Below, piece by piece: positions 41,033-62,593 of a DNA stretch of 64,000 nucleotides. The position numbers and the translations under genes are program-made. Every line of letters starts with the position of its first letter. Within the stretch, counting starts at the first letter, position 1. Source of the DNA: an uncultured Fibrobacterota bacterium (GTDB taxonomy: Bacteria; Fibrobacterota; Chitinivibrionia; Chitinivibrionales; FEN-1185); NCBI GenBank assembly GCA_963753345.1, contig CAVWBU010000027.1, forward strand, positions 218,447 through 282,446, given 5' to 3'. Below the pieces are notes generated by a model. It worked only from the letters and a program-made list of their open reading frames with translations, searched no databases and was not told the origin of the DNA.

Positions 41033-41117
41033 GAACTGCAATAGAATTTAATAAAGATTCGGTGAAGAGGCAAGGAAAAACAGCTGGAAATACCCGGTCA
41101 ACGAGTCTTCCCCGTCA

Positions 41118-42142: not shown

Positions 42143-42556
42143 CCTGCTGGCATCCCCCGTTCGTCTCGATACAGCCCGTGCTCCGCCCAGGCCACTCGAC
42201 GAACGGTGTACCGTCCCGCCGGTCATCGAGTAGACGCTTTAGGGTCGTATCGAGATGCCGGCCACCCCCGTTCGTCTCGATACAGCCCGTGCTCCGCCCG
42301 GGCCACTCGACGAACGGTGTACCGTCCCGCCGGTCATCGAGTAGACGCTTTAGGGTCGTATCGAGATGCCGGCCACCCCCGTTCGTCTCGATACAGCCCG
42401 TGCTCCGCCCAGGCCACTCGACGAACGGTGCACCGTCCCGCCGGTCATCGAGTAGACGCTTTAGGGTCGTATCGAGATGCCGGCCACCCCCGTTCGTCTC
42501 GATACAGCCCGTGCTCCGCCCGGGCCACTCGACGAACGGTTACCGCCCCGAGAAAT
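42143..42556. repeat. Tandem array, 111-nt unit, about 3.7 copies, each with conserved inverted repeats
   Basis: Unit starts at 42154, 42265, 42376 and 42487, with 2-3 substitutions among copies. IR CCGTTCGTC-32 nt-GACGAACGG within each unit. GTATCGAGA/TCTCGATAC pairs across unit junctions. Confidence 0.9.
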
Positions 42557-42845
42557 CCTTCTTCGCCAGCGAATGCAGCTCATTGTTCCGTTTTTCGATC
42601 AGCGCTTTCTTTTTCGCGTGGCTCCAGCCCTGTACCTGCTTCTCACGATAAAATGCTTCATCGATTCTCGAATATTCTTCGTTGTACACCAACTTTACAG
42701 GGTGCTTCTTTCTCGTGTAATTGGCGCCAAGAAAATTATTGTGTTCCCAAATTCGTCTTTCGAGATTCTTCGTGCTGCCGGTGTAAAATGTGCCATCGGC
42801 ACATTGAAGAATGTACATCCACCCTTTCATACCATTATCCTTCAA
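42540..42845 (-). CDS. Small GIY-YIG nuclease-family protein (YhbQ/UPF0213-like)
   Basis: 101 aa with GWMYILQCADGTFYTGSTKNLERRIWEHN (GIY..YTG motifs and the R..EH region). Confidence 0.85.
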   Translation of the reverse strand: MKDNGMKGWMYILQCADGTFYTGSTKNLERRIWEHNNFLGANYTRKKHPVKLVYNEEYSRIDEAFYREKQVQGWSHAKKKALIEKRNNELHSLAKKDFSGR

Positions 42846-42871: not shown

Positions 42872-42996
42872 CCGCCCGACGAGTGCCGCTCGCCTCGATA
42901 CATTCCTCCGGAACACTCGGCGAGCGGTATTCGACGAACGAGCTACTTCCCCGCCGGTCATCGAGTAGACGCTTTAGCGTCGTATCGAGATGCCGG
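42872..42996. repeat. Diverged extra copy of the 111-nt unit
   Basis: Keeps the hairpin with compensatory changes (CCGCTCGCC-24 nt-GGCGAGCGG, 42886-42927). The 3' half is almost identical (CCGCCGGTCATCGAGTAGACGCTTTAGCGTCGTATCGAGATGCCGG). Confidence 0.75.
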
Positions 42997-45776: not shown

Positions 45777-47086
45777 CGGCCTTTTCTTGTTGCACCAATA
45801 TGTTTTATTAGGCCTAATTTTGTAAGGTTCCTAAGATGATATTTCACGCCATCCGGCGTAATAGCCAATTTGTTTGCAAGTTCGTTTCTCGTTATGTGCG
45901 GGTCTACACTTATCAGGGAAAGAATTTTTTCTTGGGTAGTTTTCCCCTGTTCTTGGGTAGTTTCTTGGGTAGTCCGCTTAAACGTAACGGTGAAAAAGGA
46001 ATCGAATTTAAAAACCGGCTCCGGATCTCCGGCGGCGGCAAGGGCGTTTTTTATCCGGTTGATTCCGGTGCCCATTTTCTCGATATAGCCGGTGCGATGT
46101 AAAAGCGACGCGATCAACGGGTTTCGCGAAACGCTCAGCGTTCCGAATTTTTCCGGTGAAAGCCCTTTGGGAAGCCCGCCGGGATTGGAAATGTGTATCC
46201 GGTCGTCAAAAATTTCGACCATGATATTGGCGCCTTTTTCAAAATAATCCCGATGACAGGCTGCATTAACAATCGCCTCGCGCAAGGCGACTTCGGGTAT
46301 TTCGAGAATTTCCGCGCGCTGCATTGTCTTGATTTCGTACCGTAGGTTTAAATGTTTTTTCAAGAAAAGGATGGTATCTTCGATGTTGGAAATTAAATCG
46401 GCGGAGAAATCTTTTCTATCAAGAATTGTAATCTTTTCAATGCCTTTGTACAGCGCGCAGGTTATGGTCGCAAAAAATAGATGGGGCGGCAAGTTCCGGC
46501 AGAAAAAAAGGAGTCCTGCATTATTAAGATACAGCTTGTGGCGCCTATGAAGCAAAACCCCCAAATTTTCAAGGACAGCATGGTCGCCAAGGGTCTTCGT
46601 GATTTTTGCGGCGTTTACAAATCGAGTGAGAACCGAGGGATCCAAAACTTTGTTAAGGTCAACATTCTCGTCGACGATTTCATCAAACCGCACTTTGCCT
46701 TCGGATTGGATGAATTCAGTTATTTCCCGAGTGGACATCTTTTGTGAGTTCGCGCCGCTGCGCAAATAGAACCCTTTTGAACAACGATACGGTTTGTTCA
46801 AGCCTTCTTTAACCTGTATAATTAATATGTTTTCGAAATGGGTTATTTCGATTGGGACCGGAGGATCGCAATGGGTGGCCATGTCTTGTATTTGAGAGAG
46901 GATAGTATTGTTCTTTGCAATTCCGGTCTGTACATTGTGGTCATTGATGCCGATAAATATTCTTCCGCCAATGGAATTTGCCATGGCGACAAGTTCTTTC
47001 GAAAGATCGGAATTCACATTTTCCTTAAATTCAAGGGTGAGGCCTTCGCCTTCCTCCAAAATGAGAGCCAATTCCTTCTTGTTCAT
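45749..47086 (-). CDS. AlbA_2 (Schlafen-type) / HATPase_c_4 / winged-HTH protein embedded in the R-M operon
   Basis: N-terminus EGEGLTLEFKENVNSDLSKELVAMANSIGGRIFIG. Middle region REAIVNAACHRDY. C-terminal wHTH ITRNELANKLAITPDGVKYHLRNLTKLGLI. Overlaps both hsdR (1 nt) and hsdM (28 nt). Confidence 0.8.
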   Translation of the reverse strand: MNKKELALILEEGEGLTLEFKENVNSDLSKELVAMANSIGGRIFIGINDHNVQTGIAKNNTILSQIQDMATHCDPPVPIEITHFENILIIQVKEGLNKPYRCSKGFYLRSGANSQKMSTREITEFIQSEGKVRFDEIVDENVDLNKVLDPSVLTRFVNAAKITKTLGDHAVLENLGVLLHRRHKLYLNNAGLLFFCRNLPPHLFFATITCALYKGIEKITILDRKDFSADLISNIEDTILFLKKHLNLRYEIKTMQRAEILEIPEVALREAIVNAACHRDYFEKGANIMVEIFDDRIHISNPGGLPKGLSPEKFGTLSVSRNPLIASLLHRTGYIEKMGTGINRIKNALAAAGDPEPVFKFDSFFTVTFKRTTQETTQEQGKTTQEKILSLISVDPHITRNELANKLAITPDGVKYHLRNLTKLGLIKHIGATRKGRWQILEKDK

Positions 47087-49884: not shown

Positions 49885-49931
49885 GGATTGTTAAGTCTCA
49901 TGCTTGCCGCCAAGCACAAATCTTGCGCGCC

Positions 49932-50087
49932 CTACCGGGCAAATTGCATGTCGTCGGGTATGCCCATTTTCCTGTTCTCTTCAATTGCCTTTTGAACGGC
50001 CCTATTGGCAAGACGCCTGTTTTCGGTGAACTGCCTCAGGGCCCGATCGCTGATCTTCTTTTTTTCTGCCGTCTTCTTCTTGTTCAT
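49932..50087 (-). CDS. Possible 51-aa basic protein (antitoxin-like?)
   Basis: GGGAGA RBS followed by ATG. Translation MNKKKTAEKKKISDRALRQFTENRRLANRAVQKAIEENRKMGIPDDMQFAR. It is preceded by a start-less ORF fragment whose stop overlaps its ATG. Confidence 0.3.
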   Translation of the reverse strand: MNKKKTAEKKKISDRALRQFTENRRLANRAVQKAIEENRKMGIPDDMQFAR

Positions 50088-50310
50088 GCGGAAATCTCCC
50101 TGAATATCCGGTAAAATTCATCGTCCAGCACCACGGTTTGCCCATCTTCGCTATATGCAACTTCCAACGGTCGACCCTCGTAAGCCGTTTCGGTCCTCTG
50201 CGGGAAAGCGAAGGAAACGCCGCATCCTTCAGAATCAAAATAGTATTTACCGTGAGGTCAAGGCGAGGGCGTGAGAGGTGAGGTCAATGGTCAGGAGCAC
50301 TACCGAGGAC

Positions 50311-50368
50311 GGCAGTGGCACACTATTGTGATTATTGATCACACGGGGCACCCGTGCGCCAAGATTCT
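50311..50368. repeat. Copy 1 of a ~57-nt module found immediately 3' of three different ORFs
   Basis: GGCAGTGGCACACTATTGTGATTATTGATCACACGGGGCACCCGTGCGCCAAGATTCT. Compare 58500-58556 and 61491-61548. Confidence 0.75.
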
Positions 50369-50406
50369 ATTAGTTTCCAACTTGGAAATAAATGAAACCG
50401 CTCAAA

Positions 50407-52167
50407 TCACTTTTTCAAAACATCCTCAAACGCATTATTGATCGCATCCATCCATGTGGTTGGGACCTCACTAAGTGATGCCCACTGTGACACATGGTTG
50501 TACGCATGAAAAGGCTTGTCGTTGCCGGGCGGAGAGTATCCAAGAGCTTCTTCGAGACACTTGTTTAGTACAATCACATTCTTGGGTTCACCAACCGCAT
50601 CGAAAATAGGTTTGTTAAACTTCTCTGCTCCAGCAACACCATAATCGCCGTCATGAACTACAATCGGCTCAATACTCAACGCCCGCAGGTACTTCACAAG
50701 CGATATTATTGCTGCCTTCCCCCTTGCTTTTACTAATTGATACCGTGCAGCAATCTGCTTTTGTACCGCGTCTGGCAGCAACTTGAGGGTTTGCCTAATT
50801 GCCAATACTTCAGAGTCGCCTTCAACTACTATAACCTTCTCCGCAAAGAAGACACGCGACAGTTCATCGTCAAATGCCTGTACTATTTTTACCCGCGTCT
50901 TGTCCTCCGGAGGCAACTTGGCAAGCGCGGTGGAAACAACGTAATTGCATGCAACGACATTATCGGAGTCTTGTATTGCCATCCTGGTAATACTCTGTGG
51001 GTTTCGACTCAAATCGATCATCCATGGTGAATGCGTGGTACAAATGATCTGGTCAGATTCCCCTAAAGCATAGATTGTATCTCTAAGCATATTTGCCGCA
51101 GACGGATGGAGAAAAAGTTCAGGTTCCTCGAAGGCAACAAGCACAGGCCGCGTTTGAAGTTCCTTTTGTATTTTTAACCGTGCGTGGTAGCGAAGCATAG
51201 CGAACGCACATGTCCGAATCAGACCAGTCCCCTGCCGAGACACACCGGTTCGAATGTTGGAGAAGACTTTGATGTCGTATTTTGGGCGAAGAATCTCAAG
51301 CAAATCCTGCAAGGACGGTTCGATAGAAATGCCGCACTTTGGAAATACATCGGCAATAATAGTATTTATCTCGTTGACCAAACCATGGACAAGTGAGGCC
51401 TCATCAGCCGGATCCATTTGTTTTTCGAGTTGTTTAAGTCTACTTGTTATTTCACCTGCTATCGGAGTTGTGCCGATTAAGTCCTCAAAAAGCAGTGACA
51501 GACACTCACCAAGAGCATATTTTTTCTCGTCTGATTCAATTTCTCGCGCCTCTGTTAGAGCGGGAATGTGAATTAACCGAGGCAGACGGGACAGAACGTT
51601 TTGCGGTATGCCACCTGGGTTCGGCATCCAAGCCGGTTGTGCAGCCGTGTCAAAGTCAAGTACGTCTGGAATAGACTTCTCCCAGTCCCTTCCCAATTTG
51701 GCGTCGACTTCGTTTATGCCCAGCCCGTCTTCTACGATATCCACTGGGATACCCCCGTCGAGCAAATCCTTCACCTTCTTTGCCTTTTGGAACGCTGGCT
51801 TTAAAGTTGAGGGATACTCTTGAGTCTCAATCTTCGGCTTGGTTGTATCAGTTGTGAGCGTCTTGCGGTAGACGAACCTGTTGTTAACAACCCGTCCTCG
51901 AAAGCCGCGACTTGCCGCCACATCAGTCGGAATGTTCCCGAAGTGCGCAGTGATGATTGTTTGATCTGCGCGTGAGCCATCCTGCCGCTCTTGTATATCC
52001 TGTTGCGACAGTTTCTCTCTCTCAAGAGAAAGAAGGGCTTCTATCGCGGCAACGATGGAGCTTTTTGAAGTATTGTTCGGCCCAACAATGAATGTGGAGG
52101 GTTCAAAGCAAACGGTTGCTTTCTTAATGCGGCGAAAGTTTTCCAAGTCAAGCTGCAATAATCTCAT
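50407..52167 (-). CDS. OLD-family nuclease (ABC-type ATPase plus C-terminal TOPRIM)
   Basis: Walker A-like GPNNTSKSS, signature-like RQGTGLIR, Walker B VLVAFEEPELFLHP, H-loop TTHSP. TOPRIM motifs VIVVEGDSE and VHDGD. Confidence 0.8.
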   Translation of the reverse strand: MRLLQLDLENFRRIKKATVCFEPSTFIVGPNNTSKSSIVAAIEALLSLEREKLSQQDIQERQDGSRADQTIITAHFGNIPTDVAASRGFRGRVVNNRFVYRKTLTTDTTKPKIETQEYPSTLKPAFQKAKKVKDLLDGGIPVDIVEDGLGINEVDAKLGRDWEKSIPDVLDFDTAAQPAWMPNPGGIPQNVLSRLPRLIHIPALTEAREIESDEKKYALGECLSLLFEDLIGTTPIAGEITSRLKQLEKQMDPADEASLVHGLVNEINTIIADVFPKCGISIEPSLQDLLEILRPKYDIKVFSNIRTGVSRQGTGLIRTCAFAMLRYHARLKIQKELQTRPVLVAFEEPELFLHPSAANMLRDTIYALGESDQIICTTHSPWMIDLSRNPQSITRMAIQDSDNVVACNYVVSTALAKLPPEDKTRVKIVQAFDDELSRVFFAEKVIVVEGDSEVLAIRQTLKLLPDAVQKQIAARYQLVKARGKAAIISLVKYLRALSIEPIVVHDGDYGVAGAEKFNKPIFDAVGEPKNVIVLNKCLEEALGYSPPGNDKPFHAYNHVSQWASLSEVPTTWMDAINNAFEDVLKK

Positions 52168-52272
52168 TCATGTCTCCAGGTTAATAATCATCATTAAAAA
52201 CGCGCGCTCTCGCTTAACATTCTTCCTAATCGCCAACACATTAATGACATTCCCGGCGGCAATCTATTCTGG

Positions 52273-53547
52273 TCATACCGTACTATTCTCGTCGTGGTCC
52301 AACTCAAGCAAGGTCAGCCCTTCAATTTCCTGCAGTGTCTTCCCAGCTATTCCCTGCAAATCCCCATACATTCCTACAGTTGCCTGCATGACGTGCTCTA
52401 TTTGTTGTTGACGTTTTGCCCATTGTTTTGTAATCGCTTTTTTCTCTTTATCAAGGTCTTCCTGCATTGAGGTAAACGCTTCTATTATAGCCTGCACACG
52501 CTGACGAAAACGGGGACCTGTAAGGTACTGGTAAATCATCTCCGTTTTCGTCTGCTGACCTTCAGACACACGGCGAGCCGACGAGATTTCAAGTAACATA
52601 TGTCGAAGTGCAAATGCAACGGGTATTGTTGCTGTTGGGTGCGAAACCCACACCCCTTCGACAAACCCAAAGGTTTCCACACTTTTCGGGAGAACTTGAG
52701 TGATAATAACAGCTATCTCGCCCTTTGCATTTCGCAGATCATCCCGCAACTTGGCAAGCCAGCCGTCGCTCCAATTCTTCGTTCTTTTTGATTCCCACAA
52801 TATCGTGCCGCAAATTTGCCCGCTAGAATCATTCACTCGTTGCAACACATCTCCCCCGAATTCGCCCTTGGGTACCGGTTCTATTGTATCGCGTGGAAAG
52901 TTCGTTCTCAATAGCGCTTCAAGCTCAATTTCCTGAACTTCCCCTTGAAGTTGCTCGGAACCTTGTTCTGCCTTACGTTTGAGTTCTTCAATCTGTCTCT
53001 GCATTGACGAAATGGTCTGCTCCTTTTCCATCACTTTGAGCTTCATTTGCTCTTCAGTTTCTTTGCGAGCCTGTTCGCGTATTGCATCCAGTCCCTCCTG
53101 GACGCGCTTTTCAATATTCAAATTCATTTCTCTCTTCGCATCGTCAAGCTCGCGTTGTTTTCGGATTAACTCAGCTTGCGCTTCCTGGGCTTCGGAAAGC
53201 TTCTTGTCGCGCTGCAGAAGAACTTCTTGAAGTTCAGCAAGCTGTTTGTCTTTGCTCTCCAGGTCGTTGGAGAGAATCGTTCTTGCTTTCTTTAGTTCTT
53301 CCGCGGCTATTTTTGAGCGCTCTTGTTCTATTTTCTCTGTGACTTGTTGTTGAATAGTCTCTTTTTCCCTGCCGATGGCTTCCTCGCGAGCCTTAAGTGC
53401 CTTTTCCTGAGCAGCAATATCCACGTCCTTCTTAGCAATCCGATCCTCATAATCACGTTTAGTTGCCTCGATAAGTGGCGCAGCAAGAGATTCGGTAAGC
53501 CTTATTTCATTCTTGCATTTCGGACAGATTATGGTCGGTTCATTCAT
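52273..53547 (-). CDS. DUF2130-type protein: N-terminal zinc ribbon, long coiled coil, C-terminal PD-(D/E)xK-like domain
   Basis: CPKCKNEI. About 200 aa of E/K/Q-rich heptad-like sequence. GGDVLQRV..GTILWESKRTKNW block. Confidence 0.7.
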   Translation of the reverse strand: MNEPTIICPKCKNEIRLTESLAAPLIEATKRDYEDRIAKKDVDIAAQEKALKAREEAIGREKETIQQQVTEKIEQERSKIAAEELKKARTILSNDLESKDKQLAELQEVLLQRDKKLSEAQEAQAELIRKQRELDDAKREMNLNIEKRVQEGLDAIREQARKETEEQMKLKVMEKEQTISSMQRQIEELKRKAEQGSEQLQGEVQEIELEALLRTNFPRDTIEPVPKGEFGGDVLQRVNDSSGQICGTILWESKRTKNWSDGWLAKLRDDLRNAKGEIAVIITQVLPKSVETFGFVEGVWVSHPTATIPVAFALRHMLLEISSARRVSEGQQTKTEMIYQYLTGPRFRQRVQAIIEAFTSMQEDLDKEKKAITKQWAKRQQQIEHVMQATVGMYGDLQGIAGKTLQEIEGLTLLELDHDENSTV

Positions 53548-53629
53548 TGCTTACTCCCCACCAGGGCCAGATAAGTTGAATAGATTGCAAGTTCGTGAGC
53601 AGATGTTTTTTGTTCTTTGTCCCTAGGTT

Positions 53630-53923
53630 TCATACATGGCAATGAATAATCTTCATTGCTTTATCATTTGGATTATAGAAAGGTCTGTCCTGAGCGAATA
53701 TCTTCTCAGTAATCGAAAGCGAAGATATTTTTGATACATCAAAGAGTTTCCATTCAACAGGCCTGCCAGATTCACTATAACCCCCTGTTTGGTAACCGCG
53801 CAGGACTTCATTGCCAGCGGTACTAATCCCGTGGCAATGTGGTTCAACTGTACGCATTCCGCCGTCGTAATCAAACTGGATTATCGCTCTTTTAGCTATT
53901 GCATCGCAAATTAGTGCGTTCAT
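53630..53923 (-). CDS. Stand-alone WYL-like (SH3-barrel) small protein
   Basis: 97 aa: IIQFDYDGGMRTVEPHCHGISTAGNEVLRGYQTGGYSESGRPVEWKLFDVSKISSL. This fits the WYL-domain pattern as I recall it. Confidence 0.5.
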   Translation of the reverse strand: MNALICDAIAKRAIIQFDYDGGMRTVEPHCHGISTAGNEVLRGYQTGGYSESGRPVEWKLFDVSKISSLSITEKIFAQDRPFYNPNDKAMKIIHCHV

Positions 53924-54021
53924 GATCCCTCCTTATGATAATGCCGGTAAGTAGTGGAGAATTCCTAACAAGACATGTTTCAAACAACTTGCTTGCACCC
54001 GGGGCACATTTATCGATAAAA

Positions 54022-54312
54022 TCATTTGCCGCACGTCTCACTGACATTTGCCGACGCGAGTTTGGTGGCATCTCTAATTTGCAGGGTTTTGCCTGTTTCT
54101 CCATTATGCGCCTTGCACATCGGAACAATGTACCAACCACTGTCCGTGGTGCCTTCTTTCTGGACATGCGCTCCAACTTCTGGCTTCTCATAGCAGGTAA
54201 GTACTGTGCAATAAGGTGGTAATGATTGACCGCTGTAATTCTCCCAATGCTCAAGCCAGCTGCCGCATTTGCATGTGTTGTCACTGGTACCATTGATGTT
54301 CTTTACCTTCAT
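54022..54312 (-). CDS. Small Cys-rich protein with an HNH-like/treble-clef signature
   Basis: ATG 54312 follows a strong RBS (AAGGAGGG). Sequence CKCGSWLEHW..CTVLTC..GAHV..WYIVPMCKAHN. Confidence 0.45.
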   Translation of the reverse strand: MKVKNINGTSDNTCKCGSWLEHWENYSGQSLPPYCTVLTCYEKPEVGAHVQKEGTTDSGWYIVPMCKAHNGETGKTLQIRDATKLASANVSETCGK

Positions 54313-54417
54313 AAAGCCCTCCTTAGGATTGGTTAGACGATTAAATTGTGCCACAAATACGATATCAATACAGCCCAGACATAAAAATCCGTGCCCAAGA
54401 ATACCCAGATAGATAGT

Positions 54418-54789
54418 TCACCCCGCAATCCTCCCCATCTCCTCCTCAATAATCTTCCCCAGCACTTTCAGCGGCACCGGTTTTCCCAGCACGGTCACGT
54501 TGAGCGCCTTCATTTCCTTTTCCGCAATTTCCGGAACAAACCCTGAGAGCAACACTTTCCTCACGTGGGCGGGCGCGGCCGCGGCGAGTTGCATGCCGTC
54601 AATATATGGCATCCTGTAGTCGGTTACAAGAAGATCGATGGGATTGTTCTGCACGAAATCGCGCGCGGTTTGGGCATTGGTGAAGCTATGGACTTGCGCC
54701 TGGGGAGCTTCAAGGTTTATGAAGCTTGTCAGGATGTCTGTGATGAACTGTTCGTCGTCCACGACCACTACTTCGAGTTCGAGTTTCAT
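54418..54789 (-). CDS. Single-domain (CheY-like) response regulator, orphan
   Basis: VVVVDDE, LLVTDYRMPYIDG and LGKPV motifs. No kinase gene is nearby. Confidence 0.8.
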   Translation of the reverse strand: MKLELEVVVVDDEQFITDILTSFINLEAPQAQVHSFTNAQTARDFVQNNPIDLLVTDYRMPYIDGMQLAAAAPAHVRKVLLSGFVPEIAEKEMKALNVTVLGKPVPLKVLGKIIEEEMGRIAG

Positions 54790-54858
54790 AATTCTCCTTG
54801 GAGGCGGCTGCCTTTGGCGCCGGAAGCGGACATGTTCATTATACTATAAAGGGGTTCT

Positions 54859-54887
54859 CAAGAACGGAACCTTATGTTCCGTTCTTG
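54859..54887. promoter_or_regulatory. Perfect 12-bp-arm palindrome next to a TATAAT upstream of the orphan receiver gene
   Basis: CAAGAACGGAAC-cttat-GTTCCGTTCTTG. The minus strand continues ..GAGAACCCCTTTATAGTATAATGAAC about 50 nt before the ATG at 54789. Confidence 0.35.
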
Positions 54888-54903
54888 CATGTGCAGATAG
54901 CAA

Positions 54904-55152
54904 GAATCTGGGCGTTCCCCCGCTTCGCATGAAGACACAAGACTTGGGCGCCCCGCCGAGTACGGCGGCGGCCCTCGCTCCGGTCCACCCCTTCGGGTGC
55001 TTCCAAGGGTCGTCGGCCTTCGGCCTCCGGCCGCCACGGCCCAATGCCGCGGCAGCGGCGGGTCCGGGCGTCACCGCGTTCCAACGCGGCCTCCGTTCCG
55101 GCCTGGCGCTGGGCATAGGACACTACCCAACGTCAATAGTCGCCTGCGCATA
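54904..55152. repeat. GC-rich structured repeat X
   Basis: Shares its 5' end GAAT(C)TGGGCGTTCCC and its 3' ~75 nt (hairpin, CCTCC, CGCTGGGCA.AGG.ACA.TACCCA..GTCAATA...GC.TGCGCA) with 58098-58296. Confidence 0.75.
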
Positions 55153-55370
55153 TTTGGTTTGTCTTGGCCTTCCTGCCGCCATCAGTGGCGCAGCCGCGCA
55201 CGGAGTTGTTGAGAACGAGTTGTTTTTGGTTTTTCTTATCGCCATCAGCGCCGCTCCATGGGACCGGCGGATTGGTCCGCTCGCGTCGTTCAAGGCCGGC
55301 ATCTTTTGAGGATTGGAAAAATGTCCTGCCGGACGCGTTCGCGAGCGGCCTGCCGGCCACATGGGTATCG

Positions 55371-55647
55371 GCGGCGCTGCAGGCGCGGCATGGGGATGCA
55401 AGGGGTGCTTGCTGAAGAGCACCCCTTGCTCGGGGTTCGGGGCTGAAGGCCCCGACCCGTTTGTACGCGGCCCGCAGGCCGCGGGACCGGGCGGAGCTGC
55501 AGGCGCGGCACGGGGGTCCAGGGGGCGCTTGCTGCAGACAAGGCAAACGACACAATATCTGGCGCGGAGCGCCAACTACTTCTCCTTGGGGAACGGAAGT
55601 GACAACGCCCCTTGGTCGGGGTTCGGGGGCGACCCTCCGACCCCGTT
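55371..55647. repeat. Two copies of a double-hairpin module, the second with a ~70-nt insert in its first loop
   Basis: Copy 55371-55462 has GCAAGGGGTGC-loop-GCACCCCTTGC then CGGGGTTCGGGGC..GCCCCGACCCG. Copy 55491-55647 has CCAGGGGGCGC..GCGCCCCTTGG then CGGGGTTCGGGGGC..CCGACCCCG. Confidence 0.75.
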
Positions 55648-55711
55648 CTACCGCAGCGCGAGGGTGCCGGGCGCCTCGGATTTATTGAGCCAGTCGAGAA
55701 GGGGCATTTGT
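55648..55711 (-). pseudogene. Stub of a gene 5' end (MPLLDWLNKSEAPGTLALR*), duplicate of 57841-57880
   Basis: ATG at 55707. 37 of about 39 nt are identical to the start of the methyltransferase fragment at 57876. It runs into repeat DNA after 19 codons. Confidence 0.5.
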
Positions 55712-55775
55712 CCTATTTATTCCTGCTGGTTTGCGAACCTGGATACTTGTTTCCCTTGCGAGGTCCGCGAAAGAT

Positions 55776-56216
55776 TTACAGATGCTTTACCGTAAGGCCG
55801 CTAAATTGCTTTTGCAGGTATTCGGCAGCCAATCGCCTGTGGCATTTGTCGGGCGTTGACTCGGAGCACAAGAGACATGACATATTAAGTTGTTCAATCG
55901 ACATCGTTTTGTGTGGAGCCCTCAGGTTAATCAGCGCATTGTACTTCGTTTCGTATTCGGCCCAGGAGATCAGCTTCTTATGATAGCCATCCAGCAGTTC
56001 TTTTGATGGCGCGAAATCCGGGATATGCCTGTATGAACAATGACAAACGACCTCAAGGAAAAACTGCAAGTCCTCCCTTTTTGAATATCCTGCAAGTTGA
56101 GAGGAGTTGTTAAGCCTTACGTCAATTAATTGAACAACACGATTTTGATTGAGGATAGTGAAAAACGTGCGGGCAGGCTTCTTAGTAAACCCTATTGTGT
56201 ACAGTACTGCTTCCAT
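55776..56216 (-). CDS. DUF488-family protein (short form)
   Basis: MEAVLYTIGFTKK N-terminus and LLCSESTPDKCHRRLAAEYL (C-x-E..CHR motif). Confidence 0.75.
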   Translation of the reverse strand: MEAVLYTIGFTKKPARTFFTILNQNRVVQLIDVRLNNSSQLAGYSKREDLQFFLEVVCHCSYRHIPDFAPSKELLDGYHKKLISWAEYETKYNALINLRAPHKTMSIEQLNMSCLLCSESTPDKCHRRLAAEYLQKQFSGLTVKHL

Positions 56217-56820
56217 TGCTTGCTTCCTCGGGATTAGAGAATGATTCATCTACATAAGCGATGGAATCGCCTTGAATGCGATACGCCTCCTCAACAAGCT
56301 GGGCGTGAGTCCTAAGAAGATCTGGTCCGTCAAGGTGAACCATTGAGAGAAGACGTTCTTCAATATGGTCTTGAGGTTCGATATCTCCATCGCACAGTAT
56401 GTGTTCTATTTCCTTAACATCATTCCGCAAGTTCTTGCAAATCAGAATGGTCCTATGGCACATTATAGGGTCTTTCTCGGCGCACATCAGAGCGATGTTA
56501 TGATTTAAAAGGCCATCCACAATGCGCTTGAGACCTTTTCTGAAGAGCGGGTGTCTGGAAATAAGAGCATAATCGGCCTTACCATCGATGTAGCATTCAG
56601 GTGCACTAATCCTCGCTCCACATTCATTACCGAGGAAAACATAGTAGATTCCGTTATCGCGCAGAAATGCTTTTATGGTTTCACGATTGTAGTCGGGCTT
56701 AAATTTGCTGAATGGTTGTGAGCGGACATCCGCAACAGCTGAAATACCGTATTGTCTAATCGCATGCAAGAAATCTGCATTGGTGAAGCAGGAATAGCCA
56801 ATTGTGAAGAGCTTGTGCAT
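56182..56820 (-). CDS. DUF488-family protein (long form with a ~60-aa C-terminal extension)
   Basis: MHKLFTIGYS, VADVRSQPFSK, and LMCAEKDPIMCHRTILI. Confidence 0.75.
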   Translation of the reverse strand: MHKLFTIGYSCFTNADFLHAIRQYGISAVADVRSQPFSKFKPDYNRETIKAFLRDNGIYYVFLGNECGARISAPECYIDGKADYALISRHPLFRKGLKRIVDGLLNHNIALMCAEKDPIMCHRTILICKNLRNDVKEIEHILCDGDIEPQDHIEERLLSMVHLDGPDLLRTHAQLVEEAYRIQGDSIAYVDESFSNPEEASNGSSTVHNRVY

Positions 56821-56829
56821 GCTTGCGGT

Positions 56830-57531
56830 CTATTTCTCTATGATTGTGGCTGCCAACTTATAGTGATACCCGTTGAAGGGCTTCGTCAAACTGATGCAGA
56901 GCAAACAACCCTTTGACTTTAGAAGTACCTTTCGCGCCGGACTACCCGGTCCTGGAAACGGCTTGAAGTACTTGATGTCAATATCCGGGTCAGTAATGGC
57001 AAGATCAAAATCCGACCCGCCATAGGAAAATAGTGCACGCCGTCGTTTCTGGTCATGGCCTTCAAATTCGTTGTAAATTGTTGATATTTGCATGCGAAAA
57101 TTCGCAGGTTCCACGATGCAAAGAGATGACTTTGATTTTTGTGAAAGGAAGAAGGTTGATGAAACCCTATCGGACATCCTACGCGGTTCAATCCAAAGAT
57201 TCTGAGGATGTTCAGTAAGAACAGCTAGTGATTCTTTTCGCAAAGTCCCGATTCTTTCCCAGCGGCCGGGCGAAATCAGCCAGTTCTCCGGCTGGGTTTC
57301 GGACGGGGCAGGTTCAATGCAGGGAAGTTTGACGATGTCCAATATGCCGGGAGTGTTACCGTTTGAATATGAAATGTCATGAAGTGACAGAGCGCCATCA
57401 TCATGTTGTGAGACCGGTCTTATCCAGACCCCAGCCACAAGACGGCCCGTTTTCCGGATAATTTCCTTTCCTGCCACGCAGTATTGTCCGTGCTTGACAG
57501 ACCTTGCAAGAATCACTATTTCCTTTTGCAT
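56830..57531 (-). CDS. Hypothetical 233-aa protein, first gene of the DUF488 cassette
   Basis: N-terminus MQKEIVILARSVKHGQYCVAGKEI..GVWIRPVS. Its stop lies 10 nt before the next ATG. It may match a dual-OB-fold family I recall only vaguely. Confidence 0.55.
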   Translation of the reverse strand: MQKEIVILARSVKHGQYCVAGKEIIRKTGRLVAGVWIRPVSQHDDGALSLHDISYSNGNTPGILDIVKLPCIEPAPSETQPENWLISPGRWERIGTLRKESLAVLTEHPQNLWIEPRRMSDRVSSTFFLSQKSKSSLCIVEPANFRMQISTIYNEFEGHDQKRRRALFSYGGSDFDLAITDPDIDIKYFKPFPGPGSPARKVLLKSKGCLLCISLTKPFNGYHYKLAATIIEK

Positions 57532-57635
57532 TTAGCCACCCGCCACGACAGAAGATAATGGCGCCTCAGAGAAAAATGCATAATGCAGCTGTCAAAAGCA
57601 CGATTTTGGTGCAAGGTTTCTACATCCAGTTGCCG

Positions 57636-57876
57636 CTACAGAACATGTAATGTCTTTCGCCTCGGTTTTTCCGCGCGGGGCTCGTCCACCTGCTCGATAA
57701 CCTGGAACGGCAATACAATGTTCGTAACTTCGTTGGTCTTGCCGTTCCACACAAGCTCGACCTCGCGCTTGTCTTCGAACAACAGGAAACGGTACTTGTC
57801 CGGAAGCGGCTTGTCCGCTTCGATGCGGCGGCTTTGAGGGCTTCGGATTTATTGTGAGCCAGTCGAGAAGGGGCAT
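57636..57876 (-). pseudogene. N-terminal fragment of an adenine-specific DNA methyltransferase (type III Mod / stand-alone type), frameshifted and truncated
   Basis: ATG 57876 gives MPLLDWL... A second frame reads IEADKPLPDKYRFLLFEDKREVELVWNGKTNEVTNIVLPFQVIEQVDEPRAEK then stops. The W-x-GK ... LPFQ-x-IE ... EPR pattern is typical of the N-terminus of such methylases, and no catalytic part follows. Confidence 0.5.
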
Positions 57877-58097
57877 TTGTGAAGAGGTCTCCTATTGCGG
57901 CTTCAGAAAGGTGCGACTTTGAACGATCAATCTTAAAATAGGATTTGAGAAGGGGGGTGGCGTGGGATTTCGGAGAACCAGAGTCGAATGCCGTGGGAAT
58001 AATGATGCGATAACTAAATAAATCAAATTCAATTTTGGATTGCTGAGCCGGTGCGGCGCGGATGTACCCGTGGCAAGACCAGCAACAAGATAAGAAA

Positions 58098-58296
58098 GAA
58101 TTGGGCGTTCCCCTCCCCCTCGACTTCGCTCGGGGTCGGGTCGGCCGTCCTTACGGTCTCGGCTTCGCCTCGGGCTGCCTGCCACATAGGCCCTGCGGGC
58201 CGTGGTCAGGCAGCACCGTGCTCCAGCACGGCCTCCAGTCCTGCCTAACGCTGGGCAGAGGGACATTACCCATCTGTCAATAACTGCTGCGCAAAT
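58098..58296. repeat. GC-rich structured repeat X' (direct copy of X)
   Basis: GAATTGGGCGTTCCCC ... CCGTGCT-cc-AGCACGG-CCTCCAGTCC..CGCTGGGCAGAGGGACATTACCCATCTGTCAATAACTGCTGCGCAAAT. Confidence 0.75.
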
Positions 58297-58426
58297 ACAA
58301 ATGAGGAAATGTCTTTAGCAATCCACATTCCGCATTCCGCAATCTACAATTCTTCCCATCTCCCCCGCGATCAGTTCCGCCTGCTTCATCCTTGATTGTG
58401 CGCCGACGGTAAAGAATACTGTTGAG

Positions 58427-58556
58427 GCCTGCACTGAGCCCTTCGACAGCGCTTCGTCAAGCTCAGCACGAGGCTCAGGACAAGCTTCGTCGAAGTGACG
58501 ACAGTGGCACACGGTTGGGATTCTCGGTGATGCAACTCACCCGTGCGGATGCTAGT
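58427..58556. repeat. Composite repeat: GAGGCCTGCACTGAG, a variable hairpin, then copy 2 of the 57-nt module; overlaps the helicase stop codon
   Basis: CTTCGAC..GTCGAAG inverted repeat, then GTCGAAGTGACGACAGTGGCACACGGTTGGGATTCTCGGTGATGCAACTCACCCGTGCGGATGCTAG. Confidence 0.7.
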
Positions 58557-61284
58557 GTGCATACTGGTTCAGGATGGATTTGAGTCTATGATCCTCACCG
58601 GATTCGTTCGTTTTGAATCTATAGAGCGGAATTCCACACAGCGCAAACGCTTTGTTTTTGATCGTGTCCCGTACCGATTGTTCGATATTTTGCTCGTGAT
58701 GCCTTATCCCATCCACTTCAAGAGCAAATAATGGTTTCCTGCTTGTGCTGTTATAAAACAAAAAGTCCACATGCGTCCACGGATGGGTTATGTACTGCTT
58801 TTCCCTCTGATCCAGTCCTGTTAAATCGGTGATGAGTTTCCCCACTCTCGCATGCATTGTAAATGAAATGTATGGATAGTTCTTAAGCATGGCCGATATG
58901 AGTTGGTTCATCAGGAGCTCGGTAAAGTGTTCCCGGCTTTTTTTCCGATATTGCGCAATCAATTCATCCCTGTGTTCACCATAGAGCTTATCGAATATCG
59001 ATGTGATTACCGATTCCCTCGTTACCGAATGGCCATACAGATACTCGATGTAATCGATAAGGTCTTTTATGGTGTTGTTTGATGAATGATAAACCTTGTC
59101 CGATACGACAATGGTGACCTTTTTGATTCCCCTCGATATTGCCACATTCAAAAGTTCTTTATTGGTTATGAAATCATACAATCGGTTCTCAGTTGCAATA
59201 TCACTTTTGTCCAATGAGTTAACCACAAACGACAAAACGACTTCTTCCTTCTGCCGGCCCTGATATTTATGGACGGTGTCGGCTTCGATTCCAGTCTCTT
59301 TGAATTTTTTACGAATCATGTCCGCCTGACATCTGAACGGCGTTATCACACCGGTGTCTTTTAATGGGGCGCCCTGCAACAAAACGCCTATTTCATCAAT
59401 CTCCCGCTCATTGTATTGACCCCTGCCATTGGGGTTTCTTCTTGCATGATTGCCTGGAACGGTTTTGATGACGTTTAAATGTATACCATCGTTTTTCGTC
59501 ATGACAATCAATTCATTATCGTAGAACATTTTATTGCAGAAACCTATGATGTCGGGAGCACAGCGATAATGTTCTTTGAGCAAAGTCGTCGGTACGTGGG
59601 GAATCGCGGTTTTCACGGACCTAAGGATGGAATTGGATTCATACCGGAAGCAGAAGTCTATACCGAATTTTTTCGACAACTCCCTCGAATGTGGAACCAA
59701 ACTTTCGTCTTCGATTTCCTGGAGTTGTTTTGAGTCACCGACGACCACAAGGTTTCTTGCGCAACTGATGGCCAAAATACTGCTCAGCAGGTCACCCTGG
59801 GACGCTTCATCGATGATCAGATAGTCGAGCAGAAGTCTTTGCCCGACATTGTTAAGCAACGAATGCGACGTACTTAAAATGACAGGATAGCGCTTTACAA
59901 AGTGAGCGAAATCCGTTTTGTAGTTTTTAGGAGTGAATGATGCCGTATCTTCGTTCTTATATCGCTGATACAGCAAACCGGAAAAAACCCGGAGGGACAG
60001 ATTTTGAAGTTCTTCCTTGAGCTCGGCACCTTTGTTCTTGACAATATATTTTTGATGTTCTTTAATCAGGTTCCTAATCTCACGCCTTTTCGCAACATAG
60101 AACAATCTTTCCGCCGCATCCAGAAGTTTCCCATTGGCTTCCCTCCTGACCCGGGTTTTGAATTTTCTTTTTATCAGGTAACGTGCAAACACTCCGAGCG
60201 GCTTGCCCGATTCGAGTTTGATTTTCAACTTCAGATATTCTTCCGACGCAAGATCGGGTTTTATTTGACAACCTTCCGTCATGCCGGCCCTGAGATGTTC
60301 CAATTCTTTTTCGAGCTCGGCCAGCTCAACCCTCTTTTTTGCCACCACGTTCTCGGCTTCATGCACTTGTTTTAAAATGCTTCCGAGTTTGTCGATTCTC
60401 GCGCCGATGGTTTCCGGGAGGGGTTTGAAATCGCCGTCAAGGAAGGCGGTCAGTTCACTCTCGCCCGCCGACGAGAAAAAAGCGTCAACGCGTTCTTTGC
60501 TGCCTAACAACGCAACGAAGAACGCGTGCTTTTCCTCGTTGAGTTTGTCATACACATTTTGGATCGCAGCGTTATTGTTCGATACAACGGCGCACGTATA
60601 TCCGTTTGCCACGATATTGGCGATCAGGTTCAATATCGTCTGTGTTTTTCCCGTTCCGGGTGGGCCTTCGATGACGGATATGTTATTGCCCAATGCATTT
60701 TCGATTGCCGCTCTTTGACTTTGATTGAAACTGAACGGGAGTATGATAGAACACTGCTTCCCGATGTCCCGGCAACGTCCCTTGAAGTAGTCAAAAAGAC
60801 ACGAATTCTCGCTAAAGGAAATTCTCTTGAAGTTTTTCGAAAGATAATGCAGCGGAGATTTTTCTTCCGCTATTTCCAATCCCTTTTCCGCGAGCGCGGT
60901 ATAATATTGCCGGATCTTTCTGTATCTATCGCTTTCGAACCGGACCTGATCGGTCAGGAAGTCTTTATCTCCGATATATACGCGATAGTATCCTTTTTCA
61001 AATTCGTCAACCCGGACCGCATCTACGACTTTATGGTCGACAAGGACCTCAATATTTTCAAGCGGGACCGTTCTCAGGCAGTCGAGGACATTAACGCGAT
61101 CTTGCGTGTAAAAATACTTTTGCTTGCCCCCTCTGAAGTATATGGCATAACCTGTAAATCTGCCATGCGAAAAGGCCTCATACATTGCCGATATTTGCTT
61201 TGTTTTGTCTTCCCATGCACCCGTCTCACATTTACAGAGAAGAATTCTCCTCTTTTGCGGGTCGATATTGACTCTTTCAGACAA
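58552..61284 (-). CDS. SF1 (Upf1/DNA2-like) helicase fused to a C-terminal DUF2726/Vsr-like nuclease-fold domain
   Basis: TTG start after GAGGAG. Walker A GPPGTGKTQT, motif II LIIDEASQ. C-terminus HPWTHVDFLFY..LFALEVDGIRHH. The N-terminal ~190 aa are unassigned. Confidence 0.8.
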   Translation of the reverse strand: MSERVNIDPQKRRILLCKCETGAWEDKTKQISAMYEAFSHGRFTGYAIYFRGGKQKYFYTQDRVNVLDCLRTVPLENIEVLVDHKVVDAVRVDEFEKGYYRVYIGDKDFLTDQVRFESDRYRKIRQYYTALAEKGLEIAEEKSPLHYLSKNFKRISFSENSCLFDYFKGRCRDIGKQCSIILPFSFNQSQRAAIENALGNNISVIEGPPGTGKTQTILNLIANIVANGYTCAVVSNNNAAIQNVYDKLNEEKHAFFVALLGSKERVDAFFSSAGESELTAFLDGDFKPLPETIGARIDKLGSILKQVHEAENVVAKKRVELAELEKELEHLRAGMTEGCQIKPDLASEEYLKLKIKLESGKPLGVFARYLIKRKFKTRVRREANGKLLDAAERLFYVAKRREIRNLIKEHQKYIVKNKGAELKEELQNLSLRVFSGLLYQRYKNEDTASFTPKNYKTDFAHFVKRYPVILSTSHSLLNNVGQRLLLDYLIIDEASQGDLLSSILAISCARNLVVVGDSKQLQEIEDESLVPHSRELSKKFGIDFCFRYESNSILRSVKTAIPHVPTTLLKEHYRCAPDIIGFCNKMFYDNELIVMTKNDGIHLNVIKTVPGNHARRNPNGRGQYNEREIDEIGVLLQGAPLKDTGVITPFRCQADMIRKKFKETGIEADTVHKYQGRQKEEVVLSFVVNSLDKSDIATENRLYDFITNKELLNVAISRGIKKVTIVVSDKVYHSSNNTIKDLIDYIEYLYGHSVTRESVITSIFDKLYGEHRDELIAQYRKKSREHFTELLMNQLISAMLKNYPYISFTMHARVGKLITDLTGLDQREKQYITHPWTHVDFLFYNSTSRKPLFALEVDGIRHHEQNIEQSVRDTIKNKAFALCGIPLYRFKTNESGEDHRLKSILNQYAH

Positions 61285-61435
61285 AGATGTATCTCCTCAA
61301 AGATCAATAGGCCCAATTTTATTCAGTTTCCATGCAACCGCCCTCCGTGTCCGTCTATAATCTCGCCATCTGACGCAATGCACAACGGAGTCTTGAAGGC
61401 TGCCTGGGCGACAACAAACGGGAAGGGGCACTGCC

Positions 61436-61548
61436 GAGGCCTGCACTGAGCAGCGCGCTGCACTGAGCTTCGCCGAAGGGTCGAAGTGATGGCAGTGGCA
61501 ATCGATTGTGATTCATTATAACACGAGGCACCCGTGCGACAAAATCTG
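61436..61548. repeat. Composite repeat containing copy 3 of the 57-nt module
   Basis: GAGGCCTGCACTGAGCAGCGCGCTGCACTGAGCTTCGCCGAAGGGTCGAAGTGATGGCAGTGGCAATCGATTGTGATTCATTATAACACGAGGCACCCGTGCGACAAAATCT. Confidence 0.75.
61515..61542 (-). promoter_or_regulatory. Sigma70-like promoter candidate inside repeat copy 3
   Basis: Minus strand reads TTGTCG-16 nt-TATAAT, about 230 nt upstream of the helicase start. Confidence 0.3.
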
Positions 61549-61552
61549 GTAG

Positions 61553-62410
61553 CTACGCTAACCGCACATTGCCGCCGAACAATTTCTTTGGATCAAAGCC
61601 CGGACCCGTTAATTTCTGTCTTGTTGCCATCATGTCATATAGGGGAAACAGATAGACCAAGTTCTGTTTCATTTCTTCAACGATGTTCTCGACACTGATT
61701 CTTGGGTCATCCTGCTCATATAATTTTCTAATTCCGGAATACCCTTCGGTGTGACTCTTCTTTATGAACTGAAATAGATCCTTCTTGTCAATTCCGGTAT
61801 CTAACGGAAAATTCTCATCGTTCACCACGTAATTGAATCCTTGACCAAGAAGCGGCTGGAGCCTCGTCCAATAACTGTCTCCAAAGTTGGGGTTTTTTCT
61901 CAAATTCTTTAAAAACTCCGACTTATCATATCTGTTCTTATCGGTAAAAATGAGGTAAGCCCCAAAGTCGGCGTTGCTTATGTAGAACTGGATCCTGGTA
62001 TGAACGTAAAAGGCGTTGTAGTAATCTGCGTCATCTCTTTGACTGAATTGGTATACGCCGGGCAAATCTCTGTAGAAGTTGAGTTGCTCTTTGCTCTTTC
62101 CATAATGGAGCCACAACCATCCGATTTGCTTGACAATAGGTTGCCAGCGCCCGACGGGTCCTTCTTTGTCGTCGGTTTCTCCGGTATCAACTCTTATCCA
62201 AATGAAATGGGTTGAGGAGGTGTAATGCTGTTTTTGATGGTGCCGGTGAAGGTCCCACCCTTGGGATTCAATAAACTTGAACAGCGGAGCATCTAGCCAC
62301 AGGAATTCATCGCGGACTCTTTCTCTTTCCAAGCGTATTTGAGGAGTGTCATTCTCGTCCTTAGGCGGAGTAAAAGCATCGTAGTGTTTTTTGGTAAAGA
62401 GTTGAGACAT
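61553..62410 (-). CDS. Hypothetical 285-aa protein
   Basis: Uninterrupted ORF with ordinary composition. I recognise no motif. Confidence 0.55.
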   Translation of the reverse strand: MSQLFTKKHYDAFTPPKDENDTPQIRLERERVRDEFLWLDAPLFKFIESQGWDLHRHHQKQHYTSSTHFIWIRVDTGETDDKEGPVGRWQPIVKQIGWLWLHYGKSKEQLNFYRDLPGVYQFSQRDDADYYNAFYVHTRIQFYISNADFGAYLIFTDKNRYDKSEFLKNLRKNPNFGDSYWTRLQPLLGQGFNYVVNDENFPLDTGIDKKDLFQFIKKSHTEGYSGIRKLYEQDDPRISVENIVEEMKQNLVYLFPLYDMMATRQKLTGPGFDPKKLFGGNVRLA

Positions 62411-62593
62411 ACCCTTGCTCCTTTCGAATGAAATGAACTGAATTACCTTTTACAAACATTTCCTTTGTCCGCGCGTTTGGGGAACGCAACCACCCCTGCA
62501 AATCACCATCGTTTTGTAACAAATTGGCACTGTTATCCGCGTATGCCGCGTTACCATGGGCTCATTTCAGATGTGATTGCGACGCCGTGAGCT

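Follow-up and report, generated by a model that had tools for sequence, protein, structure and literature searches.

Gene-by-gene assembly of defence islands is understood only where the machine is known, as in integrons, Tn7-like elements and integrases acting at tRNA genes. The locus studied here belongs to an uncultured lineage in which the joints between units are marked by a dedicated structured repeat with the hallmarks of neither attC sites, REP sequences nor MITEs, and the question that it raises is what this repeat is and how it came to stand behind unrelated genes. Our study covered a window of 64 kb (the whole stretch of DNA analysed, 64 000 nucleotides), in which three copies of the repeat, hereafter the module, were found on the minus strand, in one orientation, 3′ of three unrelated genes. 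All credible genes between 42 and 64 kb of the window lie on the minus strand, and four features frame the copies.

42958-49884, minus strand: type I restriction-modification (RM) operon with an inserted SLFN/AlbA-HTH gene
50407-52167, minus strand: OLD-family nuclease gene (AAA_15 plus OLD-like TOPRIM; PADLOC Old, 9e-66), upstream of copy 1
58552-61284, minus strand: SF1 helicase gene with DUF2726, with copy 3 upstream and copy 2 downstream
61553-62410, minus strand: gene for a 285-aa protein with a predicted DUF1054-like fold, upstream of copy 3

The other genes of the island comprise a DUF2130 gene, small ORFs, a response regulator gene, two DUF488 genes, DuOB and a PDC-M49B-like gene. The first-pass annotation had called the three genes that precede the module defence-type. 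This description suits the OLD gene, on the strength of its PADLOC match, and is plausible for the helicase, but it is unproven for the 285-aa protein, which had no match in Pfam, NCBIfam or PADLOC. Nor is the module specific to defence genes, as copies in other contigs follow a GGDEF gene and the gene of a probable T9SS-sorted protein.

Two other contigs were used for comparison throughout, L001, from a Fibrobacteres metagenome-assembled genome (MAG) from a fen, and L008, a sister contig that shares the helicase region and holds three module copies of its own (L008a, L008b and L008c). The copies in the window are listed below, with distances from stop codons counted to the first base conserved among copies, which is the C of CGCACGGGTG.

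50283-50358, minus strand: copy 1, short form, 76 nt, 48 nt past the OLD stop codon (50407-50409); the blastn similarity to the L001 copy (87 %) is bounded here
58398-58547, minus strand: copy 2, long form, about 150 nt, head 4 nt past the helicase stop codon (58552-58554), tail ATTCTTTACCGTCGGCGCAC ending at about 58398
61413-61538, minus strand: copy 3, long form, 126 nt, head 14 nt past the stop codon of the 285-aa gene (61553-61555), tail CCCCTTCCCGTTTG ending at the breakpoint of homology to L008

Three approaches agreed on these places, as the first-pass annotation had given them. A repeat search grouped 50308-50365, 58497-58554 and 61488-61545, with identities of 64-81 %. The consensus CAGTGGCA-N5-TTG-N-GATT had exactly three matches, compared to a mean of 0.17 in shuffled sequence and no shuffle out of 100 reaching three, and CACCCGTGCG followed 15 nt further on, at fixed spacing, in all three copies. 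Finally, a covariance model (R1), based upon copy 1 and two copies from other contigs (all short forms), scored copy 1 at 91.6 bits, copy 3 at 38.8 bits and copy 2 at 37 bits, with E values from about 2e-22 to 6e-8 over the copies (about 1.6e-8 and 4.5e-8 for copies 3 and 2). On the shuffles and the covariance model, a chance origin of the three copies is excluded. With its filters off, R1 detected no fourth copy in the 64 kb, the next best score being 12.5 bits. The copies are spaced 8189 and 2991 nt apart. R1 placed three within 11 kb of the island, and the 42 kb of housekeeping DNA yielded none.

The uniform orientation relative to the gene, which had also been reported at first pass, was confirmed for the window, where every copy is 3′ of, and co-oriented with, a minus-strand gene. 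As a rule it has one exception beyond the window, an inverted partner copy in L008. The distances reported earlier (38 nt, an overlap and 4 nt) had been taken from wider bounds; the nearness to stop codons stands, the distances from the conserved base are 48, 4 and 14 nt, and the supposed overlap with the helicase stop codon is lost, as homology between copies stops short of it.

Read along the gene strand, a unit consists of the head CGCACGGGTG, hairpin 1, a linker, hairpin 2 and a tail. Similarity starts at CGCAC in all copies. The head, 10 nt long and invariant, pairs with a nearby CCGTGTG to form hairpin 1; the linker of about 20 nt holds GAAT and a second (C)CGTGTG; and CCACTGCC opens hairpin 2, whose stem, CACTGCC/GGCAGTG, bears a top ranging from a 4-nt loop to about 70 nt. 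The tail, of about 17 nt, is CAGTG-YYCYT-NN-CCGT-like and ends in CCGT, that of copy 1 being GCTCCTGACCATTGAC. The blocks that are identical among copies amount to only 10 nt and 6-8 nt, and two size classes were seen, a short form of 76 nt (copy 1) and a long form of 126-150 nt (copies 2 and 3). The elements within the copies are as follows.

50340-50358, minus strand: hairpin 1 of copy 1, CGCACGGG / CCCGTGTG, loop of 3 nt; the invariant head makes up the 5′ arm, with an invariant G.T pair
50298-50317, minus strand: hairpin 2 of copy 1, CACTGCCG-TCCT-CGGTAGTG, one of its pairs being G.T on the gene strand
58418-58505, minus strand: hairpin 2 of copy 2, ACTGTCG (58505-58499), loop TCACTT, CGAC (58492-58489) and ACAGT (58422-58418)
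61429-61497, minus strand: hairpin 2 of copy 3, CACTGCC (61497-61491) with GGCAGTG (61435-61429), as folded
61515-61542, minus strand: sigma-70-like TTGTCG-16-TATAAT (10/12, with TG), inside copy 3 only

In L001, hairpin 2 is perfectly paired (CACTGCCG-CCCT-CGGCAGTG). The stem base of copy 1 recurs in copies 2 and 3, where some 45-68 nt are inserted in the 3′ arm after TCACTTCGAC. These inserts look like expansions rather than foreign DNA, because extra GCTCAGTGCAG copies of the arm lie inside them. The expansion of copy 2 covers 66-68 nt (58488-58423) and is absent from L008, and the R1 alignment of this copy places the inner stem of hairpin 2. In copy 3, TCACTTCGAC, a small hairpin and two additional copies of GCTCAGTGCAG lie within hairpin 2, which is given an alternative pairing in the covariance-model alignment. 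Several details recorded at first pass were recovered, namely that copies 2 and 3 are longer, reaching about 120-150 nt by our measure, and share TCACTTCGAC and GCTCAGTGCAGGCCTC, that copies 1 and 3 have a CACGG/CCGTG hairpin, which was seen in the folds, and that copy 3 carries TTGTCG-16-TATAAT, which is present on the gene strand. By direct reading, the other copies have no equivalents of its −35 and −10 elements, and a conserved sigma-70 promoter was rejected, the site being confined to copy 3; the tail shared by copy 1 and L001 contains TTGAC without a matching −10 element. A CRP-like palindrome, TGTGA-N7-TCACA, was likewise rejected, being present in copy 1 only.

The evidence that the fold is kept is modest. 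In pair counts for hairpin 1 of copy 1, 95 % of cells were paired and changes were one-sided only. Among the short forms, every one-sided pair change results in G.U on the gene strand, and one G.U, in hairpin 1, is invariant. Copy 2 shows one compensatory change, from CACTGCC/GGCAGTG to ACTGT/ACAGT (C-to-T plus G-to-A, pair kept), and the divergent L008b and L008c carry unrelated stems at the same position. Folding energies were not distinctive (z −2.4 to +0.8). These patterns suggest that hairpin 2 is conserved by structure.

Does the module belong to the genes that it follows, as a conserved 3′ tag? The homologues of these genes indicate that it does not. The helicase family consists of widespread, single-gene proteins of 910 aa. 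A relative in L008 that is 96 % identical has a short-form module 4 nt past its stop codon, whereas in homologues from L027 (77 %) and L009 (75 %) the homology ends at the stop codon and no module follows. A homologue of the 285-aa protein with 74 % identity is encoded between a WYL regulator gene and cas3, where the gene map leaves only 59 nt spare, which is no room for a module. Because homologues of 74-77 % identity go without it, the module is not part of the flanking genes, and the 3′ tag of the first-pass annotation was set aside. The comparison of copy 1 with the L001 copy supports a discrete unit: the two are 87 % identical over exactly 76 nt and their flanks are unrelated on both sides. 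The gene upstream is OLD in one case and the probable T9SS-sorted protein gene in the other, and the type I RM operons that lie downstream of both are not homologous in DNA. The L001 copy follows a probable core gene at the edge of the island.

A structured sequence just past stop codons may be an RNA-level 3′-UTR element, that is, a U-tract-independent terminator, an exonuclease barrier, or a processing or protein-binding site that insulates units and owes its spread, through duplication and recombination, to its usefulness. Five of the six independent copies are co-oriented with an ORF and lie 0-78 nt past its stop codon, although only five independent loci are known and rules of position and orientation rest on these small numbers. 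The wobble pairs, all of them G.U on the sense strand and A.C mismatches on the other, and the structural conservation suggested for the second hairpin would also be expected of an RNA. However, a scan of 49800-62500 for intrinsic terminators (hairpin plus T-run) flagged none inside any copy and no U-tract follows, which removes a canonical terminator from the options of the first-pass annotation, and the folding z-scores are weak. No Rfam family matched the module in the window at the gathering threshold, and a search of 50-62 kb at E values up to 10 gave only noise, with nothing over the conserved head-linker core. The same gathering-threshold scan identified a cobalamin riboswitch elsewhere in the window. 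An RNA function leaves unexplained the sequence-specific recognition and spread that an invariant head and sharp ends call for; L008b runs antisense to the genes on either side; and the closest gene homologues work without the module. We therefore consider an RNA-level element unlikely as the primary explanation.

A second candidate is the canonical integron attC array without an integrase (CALIN). The module resembles attC sites in lying directly 3′ of co-oriented ORFs in consecutive intergenic regions (three copies, 4-48 nt past stop codons), in conserving the bases of a stem while the length of the central hairpin top varies, in having a 3′ edge that is a unit boundary, and in the likeness of copies within one array. 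Integrons are also known to carry defence cassettes (bioRxiv 10.1101/2024.07.02.601719). Against this, a regular-expression search of every copy with 30 nt on either side found no RYYYAAC or GTTRRRY (R″/R′) core site on either strand. The module does not form the single long, imperfect, end-to-end hairpin of an attC site; it has two separate, independent local hairpins and the invariant 10-nt head, and its ends are complementary over 4-5 bp. No IntI, other tyrosine recombinase or integrase was found among the 44 ORFs scanned in the parts of the window before 13 kb and after 38 kb. The units are large, at 3-8 kb, and sometimes multigenic, the stretch from copy 2 to copy 1 holding about 11 genes, some of them non-defence. 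An attC site recombines via its bottom strand, whereas the wobble pairs of the module favour the sense strand. A canonical attC array is thus refuted on the core-site criterion, and we give it practically no weight.

If the module is a junction, its edges should be visible where islands are compared, and two edges were testable. The window and L008 are 96 % collinear from 61412 to 58478, through the helicase gene and copy 2, and the collinearity runs on past copy 2 to 58358. Its start, at 61412, lies 1-2 nt beyond the copy 3 tail, and the sequences upstream of 61412 are unrelated. Upstream of this joint L008 has the native distal helicase leader, also seen in L009, and no clear module; what may be a degenerate relic ahead of the L008 helicase (at about 9690-9760) was not picked up by the covariance model and was left out of the count. 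The 3′ edge of copy 2 abuts a fragment of another gene.

58356-58397, minus strand: remnant of an hsdR 3′ coding end (type I, T1RH-like_C), abutting the 3′ edge of copy 2; 58356-58388 is 97 % identical to the hsdR end of L011 (blastn)

This remnant is also supported by alignment with the hsdR ends of L018 and L011. At both testable edges, on the 3′ side of copies 2 and 3, blocks of different ancestry thus meet. Together with the discrete 76-nt unit and its unrelated flanks, these joints uphold the central claim made at first pass, that of a boundary element and not a chance similarity. The comparison of breakpoints with the module that had been put forward as a check gave a divided result: joints fall at the 3′ edge of copy 2 and of copy 3, but no module is present at three other breakpoints (58358, 42119 and 54417). 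In L008, the sister contig, the helicase gene and the copy 2 that follows it have remained together.

Direct repeats are known to mark the joints of successive units at one hotspot, examples being tycheposon arrays and the partial tRNA repeats of genomic islands, and the module could similarly represent att-site scars left when islands integrated in tandem through a conventional integrase, of the tyrosine or serine type, whose gene lies outside the window. The direct orientation at unit joints, the mosaic make-up of copy 3 and the position of the L001 module after a probable core gene at an island edge are all in keeping with this, and the same lineage shows such a pattern with hsdR 3′-end repeats, which play this role in related contigs. 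Yet no integrase was seen in or beside the units, of which the helicase unit is a single gene, and L008 lacks the expected copy upstream of its helicase. The module has no demonstrable origin in a target gene, its copies are far more diverged than att cores, with identical blocks of only 10 nt and 6-8 nt, and an inverted doublet exists. A tRNA or tmRNA att site was rejected, as ARAGORN found no tRNA or tmRNA fragment. Scars of a conventional integrase appear very improbable to us.

The copies show mosaic relationships to one another and turn over much faster than neutral sites. When the window is compared with L008, 7.1 % of four-fold degenerate sites in the helicase gene differ (24/337), as does 10 % of the 5′ UTR, compared to 40 % of the 30 non-invariant positions inside copy 2 (P = 4e-7). 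The interior of copy 2 has thus diverged about five-fold faster than neutral sites, and in hairpin 2 a 68-nt indel separates it from L008a. Copy 3 is a mosaic, its 5′ half being 83 % identical to copy 1 and 70 % to copy 2, whereas in hairpin 2 it is like copy 2. These data are better explained by exchange between copies, or by local hypervariability, than by neutral drift. Strain-level variability between the window and L003 was rejected as evidence, because the indel-type differences in L003 are typical of assembly error. A DGR variable region was also rejected, as no reverse transcriptase lies nearby and the differences between copy 2 and L008a are not adenine-specific. No small ORF is conserved across the copies, because indels break all frames.

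The only enzyme in view that might act on such a sequence is encoded at the downstream end of the island.

41118-41981, minus strand: RAYT-like Y1 (HUH) transposase gene (Pfam Y1_Tnp below cut-off; NCBIfam NF047646, REP_Tyr_transpos, 59 bits against a cut-off of 80), at the downstream island end

The ORF has the HIH and YYDH motifs and is interrupted in frame by GTAGGGGCG-type palindromes. No such palindromes were found outside RAYT ORFs, and the idea that they are the dispersed partner family of the RAYT was rejected, as they are confined to these ORFs. In L008 the RAYT-like gene starts 213 nt past L008a and no module copy was seen on its 3′ flank. Compared to L008, the window has an insertion of about 16 kb between module and RAYT-like gene. 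In four other contig families, co-oriented defence islands end at a homologue of the RAYT-like gene, and there direct repeats of the hsdR 3′ end, 120-175 nt long, bound successive units, the RAYT gene included. The hotspot is thereby shown to grow one unit at a time between direct repeats, with no indication of the acting enzyme. No module was found near the RAYT-like genes of L011-L019, and L001, of which 8 kb were seen, has the module and no RAYT. We regard the RAYT-like enzyme as a speculative candidate for acting on the module in trans, the link between the two being circumstantial.

A RAYT-like gene next to a module copy brings in the REP/REPIN-RAYT systems (PMC3116915, PMC5581495) and with them the alternative that the module is a non-autonomous selfish repeat of REP/REPIN or MITE type, perhaps mobilized by the RAYT and surviving just past stop codons. 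Its coincidence with joints would then be secondary, because repeats promote homologous rearrangements. The discrete unit with unrelated flanks, the extragenic position of all copies and the existence of short and long size classes agree with such a repeat. REPs, too, are extragenic hairpin repeats often found just past stop codons, where they affect termination and translation (PMC5581495), and REPINs have been described in RAYT flanks (PMC5581495), which recalls the module 213 nt upstream of the single-copy RAYT-like gene of L008. The same contig contains one REPIN-like doublet, and its copies are located as follows.

L008 12738-12812: L008a, short form, 4 nt past the helicase stop codon, orthologue of copy 2
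L008 7050-7125 (plus) and 7221-7142 (minus): L008c and L008b, a tail-to-tail doublet in one intergenic region, 12-13 bits each

L008c starts directly past the stop codon of the GGDEF gene and L008b is the inverted partner; the strong copies are all singlets. The differences from REPs are nevertheless considerable. The module has no GT(A/G)G (GTAG-type) head, its head being CGCACGGGTG, and it is a unit of at least 76 nt (76-150 nt) with two hairpins, compared to roughly 20-40 nt for a REP. Its copies are mostly single and in direct orientation, its copy number looks low and confined to islands as far as seen, and the RAYT-like ORFs bear palindromes of their own, of a different family that is not dispersed either. 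The terminal inverted repeats of a MITE, of about 10 bp or more, are absent, the complementarity of the ends being 4-5 bp (ACGG...CCGT), and direct reading of the flanks revealed no consistent direct repeat and hence no target-site duplication; the option of a MITE end, raised at first pass, falls on these two points. In none of the loci compared were both flanks of a copy contiguous. Copy 3 is no simple insertion into a leader, as the distal leader is missing and 14 nt separate the copy from the stop codon of the 285-aa gene before it, and the RAYT homologues of L011-L019 lack the module. A selfish repeat of this type is the most serious of the alternatives, less likely than not but not far behind the reading that we prefer.

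The module is no described repeat family, as it lacks the defining features of attC sites, REPs, MITEs, terminators and Rfam families, and we found no other described family that fits it. The DUF1874 motif (Weinberg et al. 2017, PMC5737381) offers a parallel in arrangement, being multistem and alternating with ORFs (motif-ORF-motif-ORF) in consecutive intergenic regions with no integrase nearby, and its authors suspected an unusual attC-like single-stranded DNA site (PMC5737381). Its sequence and lineage differ from those of the module, and it is a different family, as no model of Rfam, where the motifs of that study should be represented, matched the module at E values up to 10.

Among the mechanisms listed in the first-pass annotation, a recombination site is the best fit. 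Our preferred reading, which we hold tentatively and at somewhat less than an even chance, is that of a recombinogenic, hairpin-forming junction repeat, restricted to one lineage and low in copy number, that stands between REP/REPIN and attC in its behaviour. Under this reading the module, which belongs to none of the genes that it follows, would be the sequence at which gene units of the island are joined and re-joined. One strand, taken to be the gene-sense strand because of the G.T pairs, would fold into the two hairpins, and an enzyme supplied in trans, recognizing structure and head, would cut and join at or near the tail, by analogy with the handling of attC sites and of REP/REPIN sequences by HUH enzymes. 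The RAYT-like Y1 transposase that closes the island, the only one in view, could speculatively be that enzyme. The module would also form the 3′ UTR of the transcript of the upstream gene and may there have a secondary, putative role as a 3′-end barrier. The lack of a clear module upstream of the L008 helicase unit speaks against a strict array model.

Whether the junction-repeat reading is correct matters beyond this island. The host function of RAYTs is a long-standing puzzle (PMC5581495), and if the module is a substrate of the RAYT-like enzyme, RAYTs gain a role and a second hairpin-based cassette system would come into view. Should it prove no more than a local REP-like repeat, it would be a minor curiosity of one lineage, though still useful as a marker of island boundaries in these genomes. 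The most far-reaching form of the idea would be an IntI-independent, integron-like cassette system in Fibrobacterota, in which a two-hairpin single-stranded DNA site, or the hsdR 3′-end repeats, would be processed by a domesticated RAYT-type HUH enzyme that always closes the array, and in which the 3′ end of a type I restriction locus would be the place where defence and other accessory units are captured and shuffled. We consider this extension a long shot.

The distribution of the module is narrow. Its exact pattern was found in one contig, L001, of a single GTDB genome among 185 579 species genomes (one genome per species) and once among 241 million metagenome records, in L002, a record of the same population as L001. 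These counts overstate its rarity, because the exact pattern is too strict and would miss diverged copies such as L008a. Two scans of viral contigs gave nothing or chance matches, blastn against plasmids gave noise only, and exact-protein look-ups for orthologous loci led back to the same genome only (L003-L007). When 27 loci were examined with a profile search and with the covariance model, the module was found only in the genome of the window, in L001/L002 and in L008. A T9SS sorting domain lies beside the L001 copy and Fib_succ_major domains occur in related loci, and the module is probably limited to a narrow lineage within the Fibrobacterota.

In at least five contig families, co-oriented defence islands were found to have a RAYT-like Y1 transposase gene at their downstream end, i.e. 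an HUH transposase gene that resembles REP-associated transposases, with profile matches below cut-offs for the window gene. The gene and its homologues were located as follows.

RAYT-like Y1 transposase gene and homologues
Window 41118-41981, minus strand: RAYT-like Y1 transposase gene
L008 (sister contig with a 96 % identical helicase gene) 13013-13735: homologue
L011 (related contig) 9580-10278: homologue
L015 (related contig) 10001-10792: homologue
L018 (related contig) 4379-5173: homologue

All of the RAYT-like homologues harboured GTAGGGGCG...CGCCCCTAC palindromes, arranged as an inverted pair and in frame within the ORF, a layout that is REPIN-like. Outside the RAYT-like ORFs, neither the window nor any of the fetched loci yielded such palindromes, except for one bare 9-mer match in L009, a contig with a 75 % helicase homologue. 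The core-genome edge of the island is marked by a cobalamin riboswitch (40851-41037, minus strand, 80.6 bits), which sits upstream of a TonB-dependent receptor gene (38688-40637).

Direct repeats of the T1RH-like_C coding end of a type I hsdR gene, its final 120-175 nt, were seen to bound successive small units, among them ones that hold a PIN gene, a DUF1439-like gene and the RAYT-like gene. The pattern resembles tandem accretion at the 3' end of hsdR.

hsdR 3'-end repeats
L011: 9358-9515, 10289-10446, 11209-11366
L018: 3-116, 1751-1927, 4248-4367, 5353-5431
L001 (contig of a fen Fibrobacteres MAG): 5373-5439, 6874-6916
Window: 58356-58397

In L001, hsdR-end fragments stand on either side of a GC-rich, hairpin-dense, non-coding repeat (5135-5365, 6588-6758), which is 92 % identical across 171 nt to its counterpart in the window and had no Rfam match above noise. 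The window counterpart occupies 54850-55750, and pieces of it recur at 57840-57880 and 58214-58296. Two ORFs of 94 and 124 aa (57592-58266) overlap such pieces and may be spurious.

Beside hsdS, a 111-nt repeat occurs in between three and four tandem copies (42145-42550), and a further copy (42916-43001; 83-89 % identical) overlaps the hsdS 3' end. These copies flank an ORF of 96 aa on the minus strand (42543-42830), which is GIY-YIG-like and matches TIGR01453 weakly. Within the type I RM operon, hsdR and hsdM are separated by an inserted gene (45749-47086, minus strand) whose product has SLFN/AlbA_2, HATPase_c_4 and winged-HTH domains. Between hsdR and copy 1 of the two-hairpin repeat module, two tiny ORFs of about 27 aa (TTG start) and 51 aa overlap at ATGA (49932-50166, minus strand); the pair looks translationally coupled, in a toxin-antitoxin-like arrangement. 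The 51-aa product had no family match. Copies 2 and 1 enclose a block in which a DuOB (dual OB) gene precedes two DUF488 genes (56182-57531 and 55776-56249, minus strand); these three may be a defence-associated trio.

Upstream of copy 3, the 285-aa protein (61553-62410, minus strand) had no family match. Its predicted structure, which was confident (pLDDT 83), resembles DUF1054/YktB (PDB 2a8e, 3mqz), and a 74 % homologue has a WYL regulator gene on one side and cas3, part of a type I-E CRISPR-Cas locus, on the other.
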